Part shown: positions 9,161-58,630 of the stretch, one piece after another
Position numbering within the stretch: the stretch's first letter is position 1
How the letters are laid out: each line of letters starts with the position of its first letter
Assembly: GCA_040006935.1 (NCBI GenBank)
Contig: JBDTVZ010000001.1
Location: forward strand, 423,772-487,771
Length of the DNA: 64,000 nt
DNA from: Candidatus Dojkabacteria bacterium
GTDB lineage: Bacteria > Patescibacteriota > Dojkabacteria > J137
Direction: 5' to 3'
Translations under genes and position numbers: made by a program
Notes under the pieces: generated by a model
The model's input: the letters and a program-made list of their open reading frames with translations, nothing else
What the model was told of the DNA's origin: nothing
Databases searched by the model: none

Positions 9161-9735
9161 TGTAATTTATTAATGTTAAATGCAACTACAATAGATAGTT
9201 TTGATGAATCATTTGAATCTATACTAATACTTCTTACAAATATATCTTTTACATTTGGTGTAGCTAATAGTAATTGATACAAATCACTAATTTTAGAAAA
9301 GTCCGAAATTGTTAATGTTAGTACAAATTCTCCAGTGATTTCCCTTTTGTAAGTAACTACATTTACATTTCCATTGTAAGTAGATTCTATTTTATCAGCG
9401 ATATCAATTAAATCTGTCAGTTTAATATCTTTCGCTAATAGTGGGTCGAGTGCTCTAGATTTAATAAAAAGTTCACCATTTTTTTGTTTGATTTCGTTGT
9501 AAGTTGAAATTTGGGAATTAAGAGTTCCTATTACAGTTTTAGTATTTGCAAGGGAGGGTTGAACAAGCACAACATCCAACATTGTAAGTGCAAAATAAAC
9601 AAATGCACCAAAAAATATTAATAAAACAGAGTATAAGATTGTATTATCTCTTTCTTCTAACTGTTTAATTTCCTCCTTAGTTTTAGGTGGAATTAAGTTA
9701 AATTTAAATATTTTTGTTTTATATTCTGAATTCAT
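9157..9735 (-). CDS. pilN: type IV pilus assembly protein PilN-like
   Basis: 192 aa bitopic protein immediately downstream of pilM. Confidence 0.45.
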   Translation of the reverse strand: MNSEYKTKIFKFNLIPPKTKEEIKQLEERDNTILYSVLLIFFGAFVYFALTMLDVVLVQPSLANTKTVIGTLNSQISTYNEIKQKNGELFIKSRALDPLLAKDIKLTDLIDIADKIESTYNGNVNVVTYKREITGEFVLTLTISDFSKISDLYQLLLATPNVKDIFVRSISIDSNDSSKLSIVVAFNINKLQ

Positions 9736-9737
9736 AT

Positions 9738-10802
9738 TTATTGATCGGACAAACCTTTAAGTGCTAATCCAAGTGCAACATTAAAGCTTCTTATATTTAC
9801 TGCTTTTAGCTTATCAGCCACAGCACCATCAACTTCAATATTTTGTAATGGATCTACAAGAGTTGTGTTTATATTTGTTTTAGTTTTCATATATTCATCA
9901 AGTTTAGGTAGAGCAGAGCCACCACCAGTTAAGAAAATATTCTTGATAGGTTCTCCTCCTATTTTTTCCTGATAGTAAGTTAATGTTCTTCCAACTTCGC
10001 TGACTAAAATCTGCACAATTGGTTCAATTGATTTAGCAATTTTTCCTTCGTCTGCATTAAAATCTAATCCATATGTAACTTTATATTTTTCTGCTTGCAT
10101 TGGATCTAGTCCGAAATCGGAAGATATTATTTTTGTGACTGCATTTGAACCCGTTCCAACTGATTGAGAAAATATTACTCCAGAATTTCGAGAGAGAAGA
10201 ATATTAGTATTTTCTGCTCCAAAATCTACAATCATAAAAGTTTCAGTTGGAGGTAAGGAGTAACCATGCGCTACTAATCTTGCGATTGCTAAAGATTCAG
10301 TTTCTATTGCAAGTAAATTTATTCCTGCTTTGGACATTATGTCCTGATATCTTGTTATTAAAGTTTTTGGAGCAGCAACAACATACCAATTCACAAAAGT
10401 ATTTCCTTCGACACTTTTCTCATCTACATCCAGAAAAGAAACATTTACACTTTCTAAGGGAACAGGTACTAATGATTTCAAAGAAAAATTAATTGCTTCT
10501 TCTACCTCCTCATCTTTTACCTTTGGTAGAGATAAAAGTCTTGAATAAACTGCAACTTCTGGAACAGACATTACACAATTTTTAGTACCAATATTTGAAG
10601 CCTTAATAGCTTTTAAAACCTCTTCCGAAAGTTTCTGGGATCCTTGTTCAGAATCATTGTCTAACATTCCAATAGCCGTAGGCTGTGAACTTAATGTTTC
10701 TAATTTCACTTTTGTTCCATTGTATTTAAGTTGTGCTACCTTTAAAGAATGATGTCCTAAATTCAGACCAAAAAATGGAGGTATATCAGGCATAATAAAC
10801 AA
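9738..10802 (-). CDS. pilM: type IV pilus assembly ATPase-fold protein PilM (actin-like)
   Basis: 354 aa; actin/FtsA-like fold motifs (VDFGAENTNI, FLTGGGSALP); starts with TTG at 10802 or ATG at 10793. Confidence 0.7.
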   Translation of the reverse strand: MFIMPDIPPFFGLNLGHHSLKVAQLKYNGTKVKLETLSSQPTAIGMLDNDSEQGSQKLSEEVLKAIKASNIGTKNCVMSVPEVAVYSRLLSLPKVKDEEVEEAINFSLKSLVPVPLESVNVSFLDVDEKSVEGNTFVNWYVVAAPKTLITRYQDIMSKAGINLLAIETESLAIARLVAHGYSLPPTETFMIVDFGAENTNILLSRNSGVIFSQSVGTGSNAVTKIISSDFGLDPMQAEKYKVTYGLDFNADEGKIAKSIEPIVQILVSEVGRTLTYYQEKIGGEPIKNIFLTGGGSALPKLDEYMKTKTNINTTLVDPLQNIEVDGAVADKLKAVNIRSFNVALGLALKGLSDQ

Positions 10803-14151: not shown

Positions 14152-14574
14152 TTAGAACCAGGAAGTAACAGGAGGACATTGCGAAGTACCCGAACCTTTT
14201 ACGCTACCTGACTCTAATAAAACGCAAAGTACAAAATCAGAATTTGAATTTACATTATAAAAGTACCTTGTTCCATTATTCGTTGAAGAACTAGCTGGAG
14301 AAAGAAATCCTTTTAAAGCGTAATTTTTAAATCCAACAATACTAACTTGACCTTGTCCAAAAACGACATTTGCTTTAGTAGGAAAACTTAAATTAGCTTT
14401 TCTATAATCATTTAAAATATTTGTAATTGCAGAAATTGAATTATTTCGCTCAACGTCACGTGAGTTTTTTTGAACTATTCCAATTCCAACAATTCCCAAA
14501 ATGATAAAGATGGCGGTAACCGCCATCCCTATCATTAGTTCTATTAATGTAAAGCCTTTTTTGTTCCTTCTCAT
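14152..14574 (-). CDS. type IV pilin
   Basis: 140 aa; KKGFTLIELMIGMAVTAIFI class III prepilin signal. Confidence 0.65.
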   Translation of the reverse strand: MRRNKKGFTLIELMIGMAVTAIFIILGIVGIGIVQKNSRDVERNNSISAITNILNDYRKANLSFPTKANVVFGQGQVSIVGFKNYALKGFLSPASSSTNNGTRYFYNVNSNSDFVLCVLLESGSVKGSGTSQCPPVTSWF

Positions 14575-41246: not shown

Positions 41247-41585
41247 GTCATTGCGATTCGTAGGGGAAAGATTTATCTTTCCCCTTATTCTTTTTGAATA
41301 AATAAAGCCTGAGTTTGGGTGTAAATTCTACATTTTGAAAAGGCCGTGTTACGGCCTTTTGCTTTTATTCCTCCTCCTCTTTTTAAGAGGAGGTCGGGAG
41401 GAGTTAATACCGCACCAAAAACCACAGCCAAGATCTTGTGCGGTCCTTTTTGGTATTCATAACTCCCCTAACCCCTCCCGTGTCTGCCGACAGGCAATCC
41501 CATCCTATGTTTGTGTGATTGCCACGTCGTCGCTTAAGCTCCTCCCCATGCCTGCGTGCGCAGTCAGGCAGGTCGCAATGACATC
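41247..41585. mobile_element. MITE-like GC-rich element (~340 bp) bounded by terminal inverted repeats GTCATTGCGA / TCGCAATGAC
   Basis: gtcattgcga at 41247 and tcgcaatgacatc at 41573; interior made of the same modules found at 54372..54616, 56109..56377, 8063..8372 and 48999..49450; no transposase ORF. Confidence 0.55.
41263..41296 (+). terminator. rho-independent terminator of prfA (inside repeat)
   Basis: ggggaaagatttatctttcccc hairpin followed by ttattcttttt. Confidence 0.6.
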
Positions 41586-53138: not shown

Positions 53139-54185
53139 CTATTTTGTCTTTTCTGTTGACTTTTTTGCTGTTTCTTTTTTTACAGCTTTCTTCGCTGGCT
53201 TAACCTCTTTTTTCTTTTCTTCTTTAACTTCAATCTTTTTAGCAACAGGTGCTTTTACTTTCTTAGGTGTTTTTTTCTCTTCTTCTTGTTCTTTAACTCT
53301 TTCTAAAATACCTTTGTTTGTTTTTGTAGAGGGTTTAGCTGTTGTGTGTTTAGATTGTGTCGAAACATGTTGCTCTACCATTACTGTTGGCTCTTCTTCT
53401 GAACCAGAGATAATCACTTTTTGCTCTTCTTCAACTTCGTTTGCTTTAGTAATTTTAACTTCAACTTTAGAGTAATCTTTAAGTTCATGCTTTACTCCAT
53501 TTCCTTTATTTCCAACTAAAATAGCATCCGCTAAAGTTTTTAAAATCAATGAGATTGATCTCATTGCATCGTCGTTTGCTGGAATTACATAATCAATTAA
53601 ATCTGGATCACAATTTGTATCTACAATCCCGATTACTGGAACTCCGATTTTTTTAGCTTCTTTTACAGCTGATTTTTCAAAGTTAGTATCTAAAATTACC
53701 ATTGCTACAGGTTTTGCTTCTAAAGTTTTCATACCAGCATAAAGTCTGTTTAACTTTTGCCATTCCTTCTTCATTAAAGCTACTTCGTATTTAGTTCTGT
53801 CTTTAACTCCTTCTTCAAATGATTTTTCTAATGACCTTAATTTATTTAAGCTCAATTTAATTTTTGAGAAGTTAGTAAAAAGTCCTCCTGCCCATCTTTT
53901 ATTGATGAAGTATGAACCTGATCTTACTGCTTCGTCTCTAACTAAATCTGATGCTTGTTTTTTTGTTCCAACGAATAATACTCCACCTTTAGCAGCGGAT
54001 TCTGTTAGAAACTTTGTAGCATCTTCCAAACCTTTAATGGTTTTGTCTGCATCGATGATATGAATGTGATTCTTTTCTCCGAAGATGTATTTGCCCATTT
54101 TTGGGTTCCATCTCTTTGTTTGGTGTCCAAATTGTACACCTGCTTGTAGCAAATCCTTTGCTGAAGGTATGTTAACGTCTGCCAT
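53139..54185 (-). CDS. rpsB: 30S ribosomal protein S2 with long Lys-rich C-terminal extension
   Basis: LLQAGVQFGHQTKRWNPKM N-terminus; ~100-aa K/E-rich tail. Confidence 0.9.
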   Translation of the reverse strand: MADVNIPSAKDLLQAGVQFGHQTKRWNPKMGKYIFGEKNHIHIIDADKTIKGLEDATKFLTESAAKGGVLFVGTKKQASDLVRDEAVRSGSYFINKRWAGGLFTNFSKIKLSLNKLRSLEKSFEEGVKDRTKYEVALMKKEWQKLNRLYAGMKTLEAKPVAMVILDTNFEKSAVKEAKKIGVPVIGIVDTNCDPDLIDYVIPANDDAMRSISLILKTLADAILVGNKGNGVKHELKDYSKVEVKITKANEVEEEQKVIISGSEEEPTVMVEQHVSTQSKHTTAKPSTKTNKGILERVKEQEEEKKTPKKVKAPVAKKIEVKEEKKKEVKPAKKAVKKETAKKSTEKTK

Positions 54186-54293
54186 ATTCCTTTATAAATA
54201 ATAAATAATTTATTTCTGACCTAAGCCAGAAAATCTCTTCCGCAAGTGAGGTTTTTTAAACCAAGGAAAATACCTGCGTGTTGGTATGATTGG

Positions 54294-54323
54294 ATTATAT
54301 CAGATGAGTCAATGGTCGAGCAA
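54294..54323 (-). promoter_or_regulatory. candidate rpsB promoter (TTGCTC-18-TATAAT on minus strand) with ~105-nt leader
   Basis: Reverse complement of 54294..54323 reads ttgctcgaccattgactcatctgaTATAAT. Confidence 0.35.
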
Positions 54324-54371
54324 TAGAATTAAAATAATGAAGAAATGAAGTGAATCTCAGTATATTAAATC

Positions 54372-54616
54372 TGGGATTCGTAGGGAACAGGCATGCCTGT
54401 TCCTTTTATTCAAATAATCAAGGCGTGAGTTTGGCGTAATTTCAGCAACTAAACCAGGCCGTATTACGTCCTATTCCGTTAGGTGTCATTGCGAGGACGA
54501 TCCGCCTTTGGCGGAGAGGACGTGGCAATCTCACACGAATGAATATGATGTAAATAAATTCTTTTGAATGAGATTGCCACGTCGTCCTGATTCTCAGGAC
54601 TCCTCGCAATGACATC
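54372..54616. repeat. GC-rich composite MITE-like element, left inverted copy (gggattcgtaggg + hairpin; gagtttggcgtaatttcagcaactaaaccaggccgtattacgtcc; TIR sub-element gtcattgcgagga...tcctcgcaatgacatc)
   Basis: Reverse-complement match to 56109..56377; the internal ~130-bp sub-element (54487..54616) has 13-bp terminal and 15-bp sub-terminal inverted repeats. Confidence 0.65.
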
Positions 54617-54685
54617 GCAGTTGCGGACCGTGAGATTCACAAAACATTATGATATTATGAAAAGTTTATCCAAATTATTCTATTT

Positions 54686-55045
54686 ATGGAGGAGAACCTC
54701 AGACAAAATTCACTAGATTTAGCAAAGCTTCACAGCATTATTGACCACCAAATATCTGCACTGAGAGTAATTACACCCAATTATTCTATTGGCTATCCAG
54801 TAAATTTTGCAAAATATAGAGAGGTTTGGAATTACGACATTGGCAGAAGTATGTTTTTAGAAGATATAAGAAGAACGATAGAGATTCTTAGAGAAAATTA
54901 CACTGATATTTCGAGCGAAAAAGTTGATGAATTACTAAACCAAGCCTGCATTTTAGTTCAAAAGATATTTGACCAAGAATGCAAATCAGTTCTAGAAGAG
55001 TTAGTTACTACAATAACAAAATTGAAAAACGAAGGTGAAGGTTGA
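54686..55045 (+). CDS. hypothetical protein (cassette gene)
   Basis: 119 aa ORF with ATG start, followed by a strong terminator. Confidence 0.5.
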   Translation: MEENLRQNSLDLAKLHSIIDHQISALRVITPNYSIGYPVNFAKYREVWNYDIGRSMFLEDIRRTIEILRENYTDISSEKVDELLNQACILVQKIFDQECKSVLEELVTTITKLKNEGEG

Positions 55046-55061
55046 GATTTCTAAGGTACTT

Positions 55062-55089
55062 CCCCTCGCCTTTGAGGACGAGGGGTTTT
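55062..55089 (+). terminator. rho-independent terminator
   Basis: cccctcgcctttgaggacgagggg hairpin + tttt. Confidence 0.8.
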
Positions 55090-55352
55090 GACACTATTTC
55101 TTTATGGTAGGAGCGCTTGAAGTCTTCAATACACTACCACCCGGCATCACTATAGGCTGAGTCGCCATATAGTTTTCTCCTTAAATAAAATCGGTCAAAT
55201 GGTGATTTATTCACCAATATAATTATACCATAAAATCTGGCGATTATCTATATCTGATAGTAGAAATGCGAATATTTAATCGAAGAAATTAGGCGTAAAA
55301 AAAGAACACTTTCGTGCTCTTTGGGTTAAGATTTGATTCTATAAATGCTAAA

Positions 55353-55380
55353 CGCCAAGGGGTTGCCTTGGCGTTTTTTC
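55353..55380. terminator. terminator hairpin, possibly bidirectional (ends the minus-strand small-gene transcript)
   Basis: cgccaagg-ggtt-gccttggcg followed by ttttttc on plus; on minus the hairpin sits just 3' of the small ORF at 55400. Confidence 0.6.
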
Positions 55381-55399
55381 GGCTTTCGCCGAGAGACAG

Positions 55400-55546
55400 T
55401 TACTTGGTATGCTTTTTTGGAAGAGCCACGCTGGGTTGGACCGCAACCTTTGTGATCTTTTCCACAACCTGCCCTACAAGATAATCATGAACGATTTTCT
55501 TCTCCTTCGGTGACAATGCAATCATTGTAGAACGGTGACCACCCAT
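55400..55546 (-). CDS. small basic protein, paralog 1 (48 aa: MGGHRSTMIALSPKEKKIVHDYLVGQVVEKITKVAVQPSVALPKKHTK)
   Basis: ATG preceded by AAAGGAGA SD at correct spacing; leader shares cgacagttaa with paralog 2; shared N-terminal MxG[HR][RH]xT and C-terminal S[VI]A[LM]PKK; not in ORF track (<60 aa). Confidence 0.45.
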   Translation of the reverse strand: MGGHRSTMIALSPKEKKIVHDYLVGQVVEKITKVAVQPSVALPKKHTK

Positions 55547-55697
55547 GGAAATCTCCTTTAATTAACTGTCGTTAAAATTTTCGTGCCCTCAACAGTGTGA
55601 TTTTGATTGTGGGAACGAACTTATTAAGTACAAATTTTTCATCTTATACTCACTAAGTCCGTCCTCACGACGGGTTACGCCGTGAGGTTTGTGACAG

Positions 55698-55832
55698 TTA
55701 CTTACGCTTCTTTGGCATAGCTATACTAGGACGAATCCTAGCAATTGTGATGGAAACTACCTTAGGCTTACGAACATAGGGGTGTAAAAACCCTCTAGTC
55801 CAAGCATCTGAAGTTCCATGTCTCCCAGCCAT
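55698..55832 (-). CDS. small basic protein, paralog 2 (44 aa: MAGRHGTSDAWTRGFLHPYVRKPKVVSITIARIRPSIAMPKKRK)
   Basis: ATG preceded by GAAGGAGTG SD; driven by the consensus promoter at 55916..55944; a hairpin cctcacggcgtaacccgtcgtgagg follows the stop. Confidence 0.45.
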   Translation of the reverse strand: MAGRHGTSDAWTRGFLHPYVRKPKVVSITIARIRPSIAMPKKRK

Positions 55833-55915
55833 AATTCACTCCTTCTTAACTGTCGATTTTAAGCTTCTGTAAATTGTTAGATCGTCCTAAGACTCACATA
55901 ACAATTTACATATAT

Positions 55916-55944
55916 AATATATACCTAAAATGGGAATTTGTCAA
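55916..55944 (-). promoter_or_regulatory. sigma70 consensus promoter on minus strand (TTGACA-17-TATATT)
   Basis: Reverse complement of 55916..55944 is ttgacaaattcccattttaggtaTATATT; lies ~85 nt upstream of small gene 2. Confidence 0.5.
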
Positions 55945-56108
55945 GTCTTACAAACCTTCAATACAGTTACAGGTGTGTATATTTTACAATGTCGCCGAAA
56001 AATATCGTCAGAATACCTAAAGTTAATAGGCTGTAGCACGGCCTGGTTTATCCCCTGTTGGAGCAGGTTTGCAACCTGCTCCTTGTCTTTCGTCCCAACC
56101 AATGCGAT

Positions 56109-56377
56109 GTCATTGCGAGGAAGTCTGTCCTGAGCTTGTTGAAGGATGGCAATCTCATCACCCCGTTTCCCAACGGGATTGCTTCGTCCTCACTTCGTTC
56201 GTCCTCGCAATGACAACTAACGGAATAGGCTGTGGCACCAGTAGGCGCTAATCTACATCTCCTCACTGCGTTCGTCGTGTATCTTTGGGCAGCCTGGTTT
56301 AGTTGCTGAAATTACGCCAAACTCAGGCTTTTGTTTAGAATAAAGGAAAAGATATATCTTTTCCCTACGAATCCCAG
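56109..56377. repeat. GC-rich composite MITE-like element, right inverted copy
   Basis: Reverse complement carries gggattcgtaggg + hairpin, gagtttggcgtaatttcagcaactaaaccaggc, ctattccgttag, then gtcattgcgagga...tcctcgcaatgac (56109..56215). Spurious ORFs 56048..56266(-) and 56069..56251(+) lie inside. Confidence 0.65.
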
Positions 56378-56419
56378 GTTAATCTGAGATTCAATTCATT
56401 CCTTCATTTTTTCATTCTT

Positions 56420-58630
56420 TCATTCCTCTGCAGTCGGAGCTTTTTTCTTCTTAATTCTAATAATATCCTTCTCTTTCGGATAATCTGGGTGAGCCCAGAA
56501 GAAACCGAATTTACCTTTTTTAATTAGGTAATCTCTTTTATCTTTAGTTTGTGGGATTTCTCCGTACATTTCGATAAGAAGATCTCTTTTTGGAGTTAGT
56601 GGTTTTGCATCTTTAACCTTTGGATAGTCTGGGTGTGCCCAGAAGCTTCCAAAACGACCTGTTTTTAATACGTATTCTCTTTTATCTTCTGTCATTGGAA
56701 CAGGCTCGTATCGGGTTAAGTCAATTGGTTTTGCTGCTTCGTTTGATTCTCCTTCTAAGCTTTTCATTCCCTTACATTTTGGATAATCAGTACAGCTTAG
56801 GAATCTTCCGTATCTTCCTAATTTTATTATCATTGGTTTTCCGCATTCAGGACATTTTTCATCGCTTTTTCCTAATTCTGTAAACTCTTTTCGAGGGATA
56901 TTCTTATCTTGTCTTGCTACTTCTTTTTCAAATGGGAAGTAGAAATCTCCTAACATTTTTACCCAATCTAGCTTTCCTTCTGCGACTTTGTCTAAGTTAT
57001 CTTCCATTCCAGCTGTAAATCCATAATTTACAATTTGCTCAAAATACTTAACTAACAAGCTATTTACTACTCTACCTGTATCTGTTGGCCTTAAGTACTT
57101 ATTTTCTGCAAGGGCATATTTTCTAACTAATAGTGTAGATATTATGCTCGCATAGGTAGATGGCCTTCCAATCCCTAGCTCCTCAAGCTTTTTGATTAAT
57201 GTTGCTTCGCTATATCTAGCAGGTGGTTGAGTGAAGTGTTGGATTCCATCAAACTCTTTTTGTCCTAACTTATCTCCGATTTGCATTTCTGGCAATATGG
57301 TTTCGTTAAGCTTTTCTTTCATCACTTTTAAGTAACCATCGAAGATTACTGTTTTACCGTTTGCTTTGAATAAGTACTTATCAATTTCTACGTATAATGA
57401 CAAATTAAGGAATTCTGCTGGTTTCATTAAAGATGACAGCGCTTTCGCCCAGATTAAGTTATATACTGCCGCCTGCTCACCTTCTAGCCCCAAATCTGCA
57501 GCCTTTTTAAAGAAGCTAGTTGGCCTAATACATTCGTGAGCCTCTTGAGCAGATTTATTTGATGAAGCATATACATTTAATTTTTCTGGAAGGTAATTCT
57601 TTCCAATATTTTTCTCGATATATTTAATAGCCTCATTAATAGCAGGCTGAGACATATTTACAGAATCTGTTCTCATGTAAGTTATAAATCCAGCTTCGTA
57701 AAGTTTTTGTGCAATAGACATTGCTCTTTTTGCAGAGTACCCCAATACATTCACGGCTGCTTGTTGGAAAGTACTCGTAATAAACGGTGGCCTTGGATTA
57801 CGTTTACTTTGAGATTTTTCTATATTTGAGATTACCCACTTTTCATCTTTTACATCTTCAACAACTTTAGTTGCTTCTTTTTGAGTCTTTAATTCTGGAG
57901 CTTTTTTAGAAATTTTGAAAAGTTCAAATTTTATTAAATTTTCTGGAACTTGAATTTTTTCTTCTTCCTCGTCTTTATTAGTAAGTTTATAGTTGATTTT
58001 ATAGTTTGGCTTTGTATCTTTATGGTCCGCGTAGGCCTCAACACTCCAGTACTCATCCGATTTGAATGCTTCCCTTTCTAACTCTTTTTCTACCACTAAT
58101 CTTAAAGCTGCAGATTGAACTCTACCTGCAGATAGTCCGAATGTAATTTTCTTCCAAAGAAGTGGAGATAGTTTATAACCTACTAATCTATCTAGAAACC
58201 TTCTAGCTTGTTGAGCATTAACTAAATCCATATTAATATCTCGAGGATGTGCAATTGCTTCTTGAATTGCCTCTTTTGTAATTTCGTGGAATACAATTCT
58301 TTCAACTGGTCTTTTTCCTTTATGTTTTCCGTTTTCATCAATTACACCAAGCTCTTTTGCAATGTGCCAACCAATAGCTTCTCCTTCTCTATCCAAGTCG
58401 GAAGCAATTATTAATTTATCTGCACCTTTAAAAGCTTTCTTAATATCTGCTAATGCTTCTTTTTTTGTTATTACATAAGTAGGTTTAAAATCATGCTCTA
58501 CGTCTATACCTGTTTCAGACTTTGGAAGGTCTACCACATGGCCTTTAGATGCAATTACATGATACTCACTACCCAAGTATTTCTTGATTGTCTTCGATTT
58601 TGATGGTGACTCTACTACAACTAAGTTCAT
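56420..58630 (-). CDS. topA: DNA topoisomerase I
   Basis: 736 aa; Toprim, catalytic Tyr domain, degenerate C-terminal repeats (GRFGSFWAHPDYPKVKD, GKFGFFWAHPDYPKEKD). Confidence 0.95.
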   Translation of the reverse strand: MNLVVVESPSKSKTIKKYLGSEYHVIASKGHVVDLPKSETGIDVEHDFKPTYVITKKEALADIKKAFKGADKLIIASDLDREGEAIGWHIAKELGVIDENGKHKGKRPVERIVFHEITKEAIQEAIAHPRDINMDLVNAQQARRFLDRLVGYKLSPLLWKKITFGLSAGRVQSAALRLVVEKELEREAFKSDEYWSVEAYADHKDTKPNYKINYKLTNKDEEEEKIQVPENLIKFELFKISKKAPELKTQKEATKVVEDVKDEKWVISNIEKSQSKRNPRPPFITSTFQQAAVNVLGYSAKRAMSIAQKLYEAGFITYMRTDSVNMSQPAINEAIKYIEKNIGKNYLPEKLNVYASSNKSAQEAHECIRPTSFFKKAADLGLEGEQAAVYNLIWAKALSSLMKPAEFLNLSLYVEIDKYLFKANGKTVIFDGYLKVMKEKLNETILPEMQIGDKLGQKEFDGIQHFTQPPARYSEATLIKKLEELGIGRPSTYASIISTLLVRKYALAENKYLRPTDTGRVVNSLLVKYFEQIVNYGFTAGMEDNLDKVAEGKLDWVKMLGDFYFPFEKEVARQDKNIPRKEFTELGKSDEKCPECGKPMIIKLGRYGRFLSCTDYPKCKGMKSLEGESNEAAKPIDLTRYEPVPMTEDKREYVLKTGRFGSFWAHPDYPKVKDAKPLTPKRDLLIEMYGEIPQTKDKRDYLIKKGKFGFFWAHPDYPKEKDIIRIKKKKAPTAEE

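Follow-up and report, generated by a model that had tools for sequence, protein, structure and literature searches.

The window analyzed here, a whole stretch of 64,000 nucleotides (nt), comes from contig JBDTVZ010000001.1 of a Candidatus Dojkabacteria bacterium (assembly GCA_040006935.1, positions 423,772 to 487,771 of the forward strand). Between its topA and rpsB genes lie two small minus-strand open reading frames (ORFs), ORF44 and ORF48, that are tandem paralogs and have no detected relatives elsewhere. We hold, with somewhat better than even confidence, that they are real genes, co-transcribed and translated into basic proteins of ~5 kDa, and that a 2.1-kb orphan insertion, present in one lineage, carries them as accessory cargo. 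They are best described as a pair of small, lineage-specific orphan genes located on an islet bounded by repeats. The parts of the locus, in the order of transcription, are as follows.

55916..55944, minus strand: sigma-70-type promoter, TTGACA-17-TATATT, with 11 of 12 matches; the top site in 54000-56600
55868..55910, minus strand: 12-bp stem-loop UGUAAAUUGUUA...UAACAAUUUACA, the predicted 5' end of the transcript, from the fold and from its presumed placement relative to the -10 box
55847..55854, minus strand: GACAGTTA, copy a1, just 5' of the Shine-Dalgarno (SD) box of ORF44
55839..55844, minus strand: SD box of ORF44, AAGGAG, with the ATG 6 nt on
55698..55832, minus strand: ORF44, MAGRHGTSDAWTRGFLHPYVRKPKVVSITIARIRPSIAMPKKRK, isoelectric point (pI) 12.0, charge +9.7
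55563..55700, minus strand: structured intercistronic element, an 8-bp closing stem around three hairpins (from the fold)
55553..55558, minus strand: SD box of ORF48, AAGGAG, with the ATG 6 nt on
55400..55546, minus strand: ORF48, MGGHRSTMIALSPKEKKIVHDYLVGQVVEKITKVAVQPSVALPKKHTK, pI 10.1, charge +5.8
55395..55402, minus strand: TAACTGTC, copy b2, across the stop codon of ORF48
55295..55394, minus strand: 3' untranslated region (UTR) with three hairpins, the last of which (55322-55301), with its U run, is read as an intrinsic terminator

An earlier note on this DNA, a model's reading of the letters, had described both ORFs, a strong SD box for each, a conserved leader, a consensus promoter and a hairpin terminator. 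All of these are borne out: the peptide sequences are exactly as it wrote them, the SD boxes stand at the same distance from each ATG, and the leader CGACAGTTAA lies 5' of both boxes, with no other exact copy in the window. The leader motif supplies one half of an inverted repeat of 8 bp: GACAGTTA stands before each SD box and its counterpart, TAACTGTC, lies across each stop codon. The window contains five copies of the 8-mer, and four of them fall at the ORF44/ORF48 locus. On the 3' side of ORF48 an 11-bp hairpin (55376-55350) is followed by a 9-bp hairpin and a U run (55322-55301). No promoter-like site precedes ORF48 and no U run follows the ORF44 hairpin; with a single strong promoter upstream, the two ORFs should therefore share one transcript. 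Directly 3' of the -10 box is a perfect palindrome of 11-12 bp, GTAAATTGTTA-N19-TAACAATTTAC (55868-55910, minus strand), which could act as an RNA-stabilizing 5' hairpin, as a DNA operator for a DNA-binding protein, or as both.

Protein coding is the best reading of ORF44 and ORF48 and, judged from the sequence, a likely one. The two peptides share an N-terminal motif, MxG(H/R)(R/H)xT, and a tail, (Q/R)PS(V/I)A(L/M)PKK, and both have Lys/Arg-rich ends. In BLASTP they are 33% identical (E = 2e-6), and by tblastn within the window each is the sole significant match of the other (E ~1e-3). Their Smith-Waterman score is 58, against 20.6 +/- 4.1 for 5000 shuffles (z = 9.2). The earlier note had called them tandem paralogs, and had allowed that their likeness might vanish under proper alignment and leave chance ORFs; the likeness persists and depends on the reading frame: the alignment scores 58 in frame, and 16 and 26 in the alternative frames. 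Identity at codon positions 1, 2 and 3 is 59%, 52% and 39%, and these counts are nearly unchanged on a MAFFT DNA alignment that was not guided by the protein. Half of the 16 identical residues are encoded by different codons; synonymous-but-different triplets number eight in frame, versus two and four out of frame. The two indels, of 9 nt and 3 nt, are both in frame. By the Nei-Gojobori method the nonsynonymous rate (dN) is 0.67 and the synonymous rate (dS) 1.81, a dN/dS of ~0.37. Although only ~50% of the nucleotides within the ORFs are identical, both copies have retained the start ATG, the SD box at an unchanged spacing, and the stop. AAGGAG stands 4-9 nt from the start codon of an ORF of 30 codons or more at three places in the window, two of which are ORF44 and ORF48.

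Such SD boxes are rare in the window. It has 59 ORFs of 100 codons or more, and the upstream regions of 56 of these contain no GGAG, GAGG or AGGA; TTAAA lies upstream of 30 of the 59 (6.4 expected), with a peak at -13. AAGGAG at 4-9 nt from the start is found at one of these large ORFs and at all three small ORFs of the insertion (6-8 nt), the third being ORF24, described below. Within the candidate phyla radiation (CPR), a published survey (PMC9297842) reports, it is mainly a subgroup of Parcubacteria that has lost the anti-SD. The ribosomes of Dojkabacteria are probably still able to read an SD box. If they do so, the insertion genes would either be unusually strongly initiated or carry the signals of a foreign donor.

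Homologs were sought widely. A profile search of 5.8 billion protein clusters returned ORF44 itself only, from a 1035-bp Logan contig (sample SRR26386621) that is 100% identical to the window; a HMMER profile run against 1.84 billion representatives recovered, besides ORF44, only a spurious protein with a 13-fold repeat. ORF48 is absent from the protein collections, and neither ORF is among the NCBI proteins of the host genome, in keeping with the earlier note's remark that both had escaped annotation. Scans of genome, metagenome and viral contigs seeded with peptide motifs gave no homolog. The exact leader, SD and ATG pattern occurs in 14 stretches of metagenome contigs and two of viral contigs, all unrelated (for example groEL starts). 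Neither tblastn of the peptides nor blastn of the insertion core found anything in phages or plasmids. No Pfam or NCBIfam family matches the peptides at E up to 10, and the best PDB profile match (E 0.2) is to an unrelated peptidase; the earlier note, too, had been unable to place them among ribosomal proteins or known peptide families. PHROGs and PADLOC hold nothing for the three small ORFs, and our reading turned up nothing relevant in the literature on the palindrome sequence or on small proteins of Dojkabacteria. Absence from protein databases is weak evidence, because gene callers miss such ORFs. The earlier note had taken a lack of homologs in related genomes, like a loss of paralog similarity, as a sign of chance ORFs. 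None was found in any collection searched, yet the similarity between the paralogs is frame-specific, which makes the pair orphans rather than chance ORFs.

A number of observations weigh against reading the pair as translated genes. With no homolog in any collection, comparative support is confined to the paralog pair. Chance alone gives open frames as long as these fairly often: among dinucleotide shuffles a fraction of 0.17 for ORF48 and 0.04 for ORF44 lack an in-frame stop, and two ATG-initiated ORFs of at least 44 codons are expected in a 621-nt region with P = 0.19. The third-position effect, drawn from a single pair of sequences, has a Fisher p of 0.06, and dS has almost reached saturation. 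In codon usage the ORFs take a middle position: they fall in the bottom 2-5% of chunks from real genes, at a level that 17-23% of spurious ORFs reach. AlphaFold gives ORF48 one helix at low confidence (predicted local distance difference test, pLDDT, 66), too weak for a fold search. Finally, the host seldom uses SD boxes, so their effect here is an assumption. As the open frames by themselves are unremarkable, the case for genes is built on the frame-specific similarity and the translation signals.

A second perspective supposes that the locus is a structured non-coding RNA, or two duplicated small-RNA units, in which the ORFs are incidental. The full 621-nt transcript folds with z = -7; the GC content of the locus is above that of the AT-rich genome, as is often so for structured RNAs; complementary conserved 8-nt motifs flank each unit; and both the ease with which frames of this size arise and the absence of protein homologs would follow. 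The excess of structure, however, lies in the UTRs and the spacer and not in the ORF bodies. The spacer folds with z = -6.8 (none of 200 shuffles folds as well) and the 3' UTR, where the earlier note saw its terminator, with z = -6.9; the 5' UTR alone gives z = -1.9, and the coding bodies fold like their shuffles (z = -1.1 and -0.6). An mRNA whose structure is concentrated outside its reading frames would look like this, as opposed to a structured RNA with fortuitous ORFs. Nor would an RNA account readily for copies whose similarity follows the reading frame, with synonymous changes and in-frame indels, and which hold ATG and AAGGAG at identical spacing. Rfam identifies only tRNAs in the window; its best matches in 54186-56419 (E ~0.2-1) are far below gathering. 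We regard a non-coding RNA as unlikely.

If ORF44 and ORF48 are instead translated genes, their expression can be pictured as follows. The near-consensus promoter would start an mRNA with the 12-bp hairpin as its 5' end, and the two cistrons would be read from canonical SD boxes, exceptional for the host genome. In the predicted fold of the spacer, UAACUGUC, which overlaps the ORF44 stop, pairs with GACAGUUA, which ends 4 nt before the ORF48 SD box; predicted probabilities are ~0.99 for six of the eight pairs of this closing stem, and 0.55 and 0.91 at its outer end. A ribosome ending ORF44 might then melt the closing stem of the 138-nt element beside the ORF48 start, which would couple the translation of the two. 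In the minimum-energy fold predicted for the full-length transcript, the SD box pairs with ORF44 coding sequence. The 3' hairpins would terminate and stabilize the message, and the 5' hairpin may stabilize it as well. The pair probably arose by tandem duplication of a unit made up of GACAGTTA, the SD box, the ORF, and the stop with TAACTGTC. The proteins might bind a polyanion (RNA or DNA) through their Lys/Arg-rich ends and the shared tail; this is a guess from composition.

The setting of the pair is an insertion. Five relatives retain the gene order mreB - PBP (penicillin-binding protein) - dprA - topA - rpsB - tsf - frr; they were located through a protein collection and compared at their syntenic topA-rpsB loci. 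(A scan of genome contigs with ribosomal protein S2 as the query yielded only proteins 43-53% identical, from other phyla.) The identity of S2, the length of the topA-rpsB spacer and its content are, for each relative:

L082: S2 81%; spacer 874 bp; a 60-codon membrane-like ORF
L084: S2 67%; spacer 1206 bp; a gene of 290 residues
L085: S2 64%; spacer 251 bp; no content
L103: S2 65%; spacer 132 bp; no content
L104: S2 63%; spacer 114 bp; no content

The spacer of the window is 2234 bp long, and no relative of ORF44, ORF48 or ORF24 is found at any of the five syntenic loci. A long spacer at a conserved junction, with cargo that the relatives do not have, points to an insertion. It begins directly after the topA stop and ends near 54323, where similarity to the rpsB leader of L082 starts. 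GC content is 0.41-0.42 over the small ORFs, compared with ~0.33 for the genes on either side. Two inverted arms bound the insertion.

54326..54625: left inverted arm, a repeat mosaic that includes the palindrome GTCATTGCGAGGA...TCCTCGCAATGAC
56100..56415: right inverted arm, starting directly after the topA stop and including a hairpin read as the topA terminator

The arms, of ~300 nt each, are mosaics of shorter repeats and share blocks that are 84-97% identical. The earlier note's suggestion that the pair is cargo of a repeat-flanked cassette thus fits well: the flanking repeats are real, and synteny identifies the insertion. An assembly artefact was considered as the source of the inverted arms and rejected, as the arms differ from each other (~84% identity) and the right side is exactly the same in a separate Logan assembly. 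No recombinase or transposase lies near the insertion. One of the arm repeats resembles a terminator hairpin and, on the rpsB side, points into the insertion. A hairpin module, CTGGGATTCGTAGGGAA...TTCC, is found after topA and in both arms, with a third copy at 41252-41291 (88% over 40 nt); it appears to be a reused terminator-like repeat.

Palindromic elements of ~100-130 nt with the ends GTCATTGCGAG...CTCGCAATGAC occur in the window at 54485-54613 and 56109-56214, with partial copies near 41247, 49436 and 52395. L082, the closest of the relatives, carries them at 9205-9293, 9662-9788 and 14305-14426; they are not present at the syntenic loci of L084, L085, L103 and L104. In both the window and L082 a pair of these palindromes brackets the topA-rpsB cargo. 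The cargo of L082 is a different small ORF (9433-9615, 60 codons, membrane-like, MDQKEKRDLKGHDDYENLPWKAWGSWFSWGSPVGLSLGWALFIIPLGVFIYLLHLSNVIK) with its own terminator. The topA-rpsB spacer looks like a hot spot for accessory genes.

Two further ORFs share the insertion with the pair.

55094..55168, minus strand: ORF24, the third small ORF, MATQPIVMPGGSVLKTSSAPTIKK, 24 codons, with AAGGAG 8 nt before the ATG
54686..55045, plus strand: ORF119, acidic (pI 4.9, charge -6), the NCBI hypothetical protein ABI721_02285

ORF24 has its own extended -10 promoter, TGgTATAAT (55250-55222), and ends at a hairpin (55062-55085) that it has in common with ORF119, which converges on it. ORF24 was considered as a third paralog and rejected: its leader, tail and a QP(I/S)V..P stretch bear a faint likeness to those of the pair, and no alignment is significant. 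ORF119, convergent with the basic small ORFs, has no homolog in the 5.8 billion clusters beyond its own NCBI entry and only matches of E >=0.1 in PHROGs; it is probably helical, and its AlphaFold model (pLDDT 55) is too weak for a fold search. In the flanking genes, S2 (53139-54185, minus strand) has 348 residues and a Lys/Glu-rich C-terminal tail of ~100 residues, and the 3' end of topA (56465-56688) contains an internal direct repeat with a period of 144 nt and 76% identity, which is probably a duplicated zinc-ribbon module.

If the peptides are made, they add a family without relatives to the poorly charted small proteome of the CPR, one of a kind that public annotation misses. The occurrence of SD-less housekeeping genes beside SD-led insertion genes offers a possible test of how translation starts in Dojkabacteria. 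The topA-rpsB spacer, which holds different small cargo in different relatives between palindromes of the same class, may help in the study of gene acquisition in reduced genomes. Although the pair is real and its design neat, it is known from one genome, which limits its reach. A bolder proposal goes further: the ORFs would found a new family of small, basic, SD-led proteins that act on the ribosome or on RNA, are coupled through the intercistronic stem and were delivered as cargo flanked by the palindromes to a hot spot at rpsB, on a kind of mobile cassette undescribed so far. We find this improbable.

Several known systems resemble the locus in part. Type I toxin-antitoxin systems (hok/sok, ldr, ibs, zor-orz) likewise have tandem duplicates of small ORFs in intergenic islets, and genes that usually go unannotated and are poorly conserved in sequence; their strongly folded mRNAs, in which distant segments pair near the ribosome-binding site, are a possible parallel to the fold predicted here. 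The pair could be imagined as encoding toxins or effectors, small and basic, for a selfish or competitive module; the antidote would be the acidic ORF119 or an RNA, and the mRNA would be under type I-like control by long-range pairing. In favor of this, two small duplicated ORFs that annotation has missed lie in an orphan inserted islet; their mRNA is predicted to be highly structured and to pair at the ribosome-binding region; and basic peptides (+6, +10) stand beside a convergent acidic orphan of charge -6. Type I toxins, however, insert into membranes. ORF44 and ORF48 are hydrophilic (grand average of hydropathy, GRAVY, -0.23 and -0.51 for the two peptides), with longest uncharged runs of 12 residues in ORF48 (VAVQPSVALP and its flanks) and seven in ORF44, none of them a hydrophobic segment of transmembrane length. 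A consensus scan of 55290-55910, a weak test, gave no promoter-like site on the opposite strand for an antisense RNA; no islet protein has a PADLOC or Pfam match; and the model of ORF119 is of low confidence. A small toxin of the classic type, one of the earlier note's candidates, thus finds no support, and we give the selfish module in general little credence.

Small ribosomal proteins offer another comparison. Like bL34, bL36, bS22, bTHX and Sra (24-48 residues, pI >10), the pair combines small size, a pI of 10-12 and a Lys/Arg-rich tail with strong expression signals; such proteins are often missed by gene callers, and here the pair adjoins rpsB-tsf-frr. QPSV is also found near the N-terminus of bL34, a resemblance of four residues only. 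Lineage-specific ribosome-associated proteins, or other small RNA-binding proteins, might be looked for beside these translation genes; CPR bacteria are reported to lack uL30, and Dojkabacteria bL9 (PMC9297842). Against this, the ORFs match no Pfam or NCBIfam ribosomal family, the small ones bL33-bL36, bS21, bS22, bTHX and bL37 among them, and no PDB chain, including those of ribosome structures, and they are missing from the spacer in all five relatives, whose S2 is at most 81% identical. Adjacency to rpsB is a product of the insertion, not a conserved operon. The ribosome-associated role that the earlier note listed finds no support as a core function, and a lineage-specific one seems quite improbable.

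Integron cassettes are alike in their series of promoterless orphan ORFs behind one promoter, and the palindromic element behind each ORF, with TAAC at the stop and GTTA ahead of the next ORF, recalls an attC site; the single promoter of the locus would correspond to the integron Pc. The spacer is an imperfect 138-nt palindrome with AAGTAAC, which holds the stop, at its 5' end and GTTAATT at its 3' end. The attC boxes are R'' = RYYYAAC and R' = GTTRRRY, and we take the spacer ends to resemble them at five and six of seven positions; large attC sites tolerate a branched central part. The R/L box layout is nevertheless unmatched: an 8-bp helix runs continuously inward from AAC/GTT to three independent hairpins, with no unpaired central spacer and no L''/L' helix. 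There is a single complete element, the neighbors are housekeeping genes (topA, dprA, rpsB, tsf), and no integrase is adjacent. An integron-like origin is very improbable. A leader peptide or attenuator, also raised in the earlier note, is rejected, as ORF48 is followed by two terminator hairpins, the separately promoted ORF24 and a convergent gene, so that there is no downstream gene to control.

For the insertion itself, rather than its cargo, the nearest parallels are the repeats known as REP (repetitive extragenic palindromic) sequences and BIMEs (bacterial interspersed mosaic elements), the Correia elements and MITE-like (miniature inverted-repeat transposable element) brackets. The insertion differs in that no transposase was found, and any movement of the cargo by the palindromes is conjectural. 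As in those systems, palindromes, here with the ends GTCATTGCGAG...CTCGCAATGAC, bound the inserted segment, and L082 shows a similar arrangement around other cargo.

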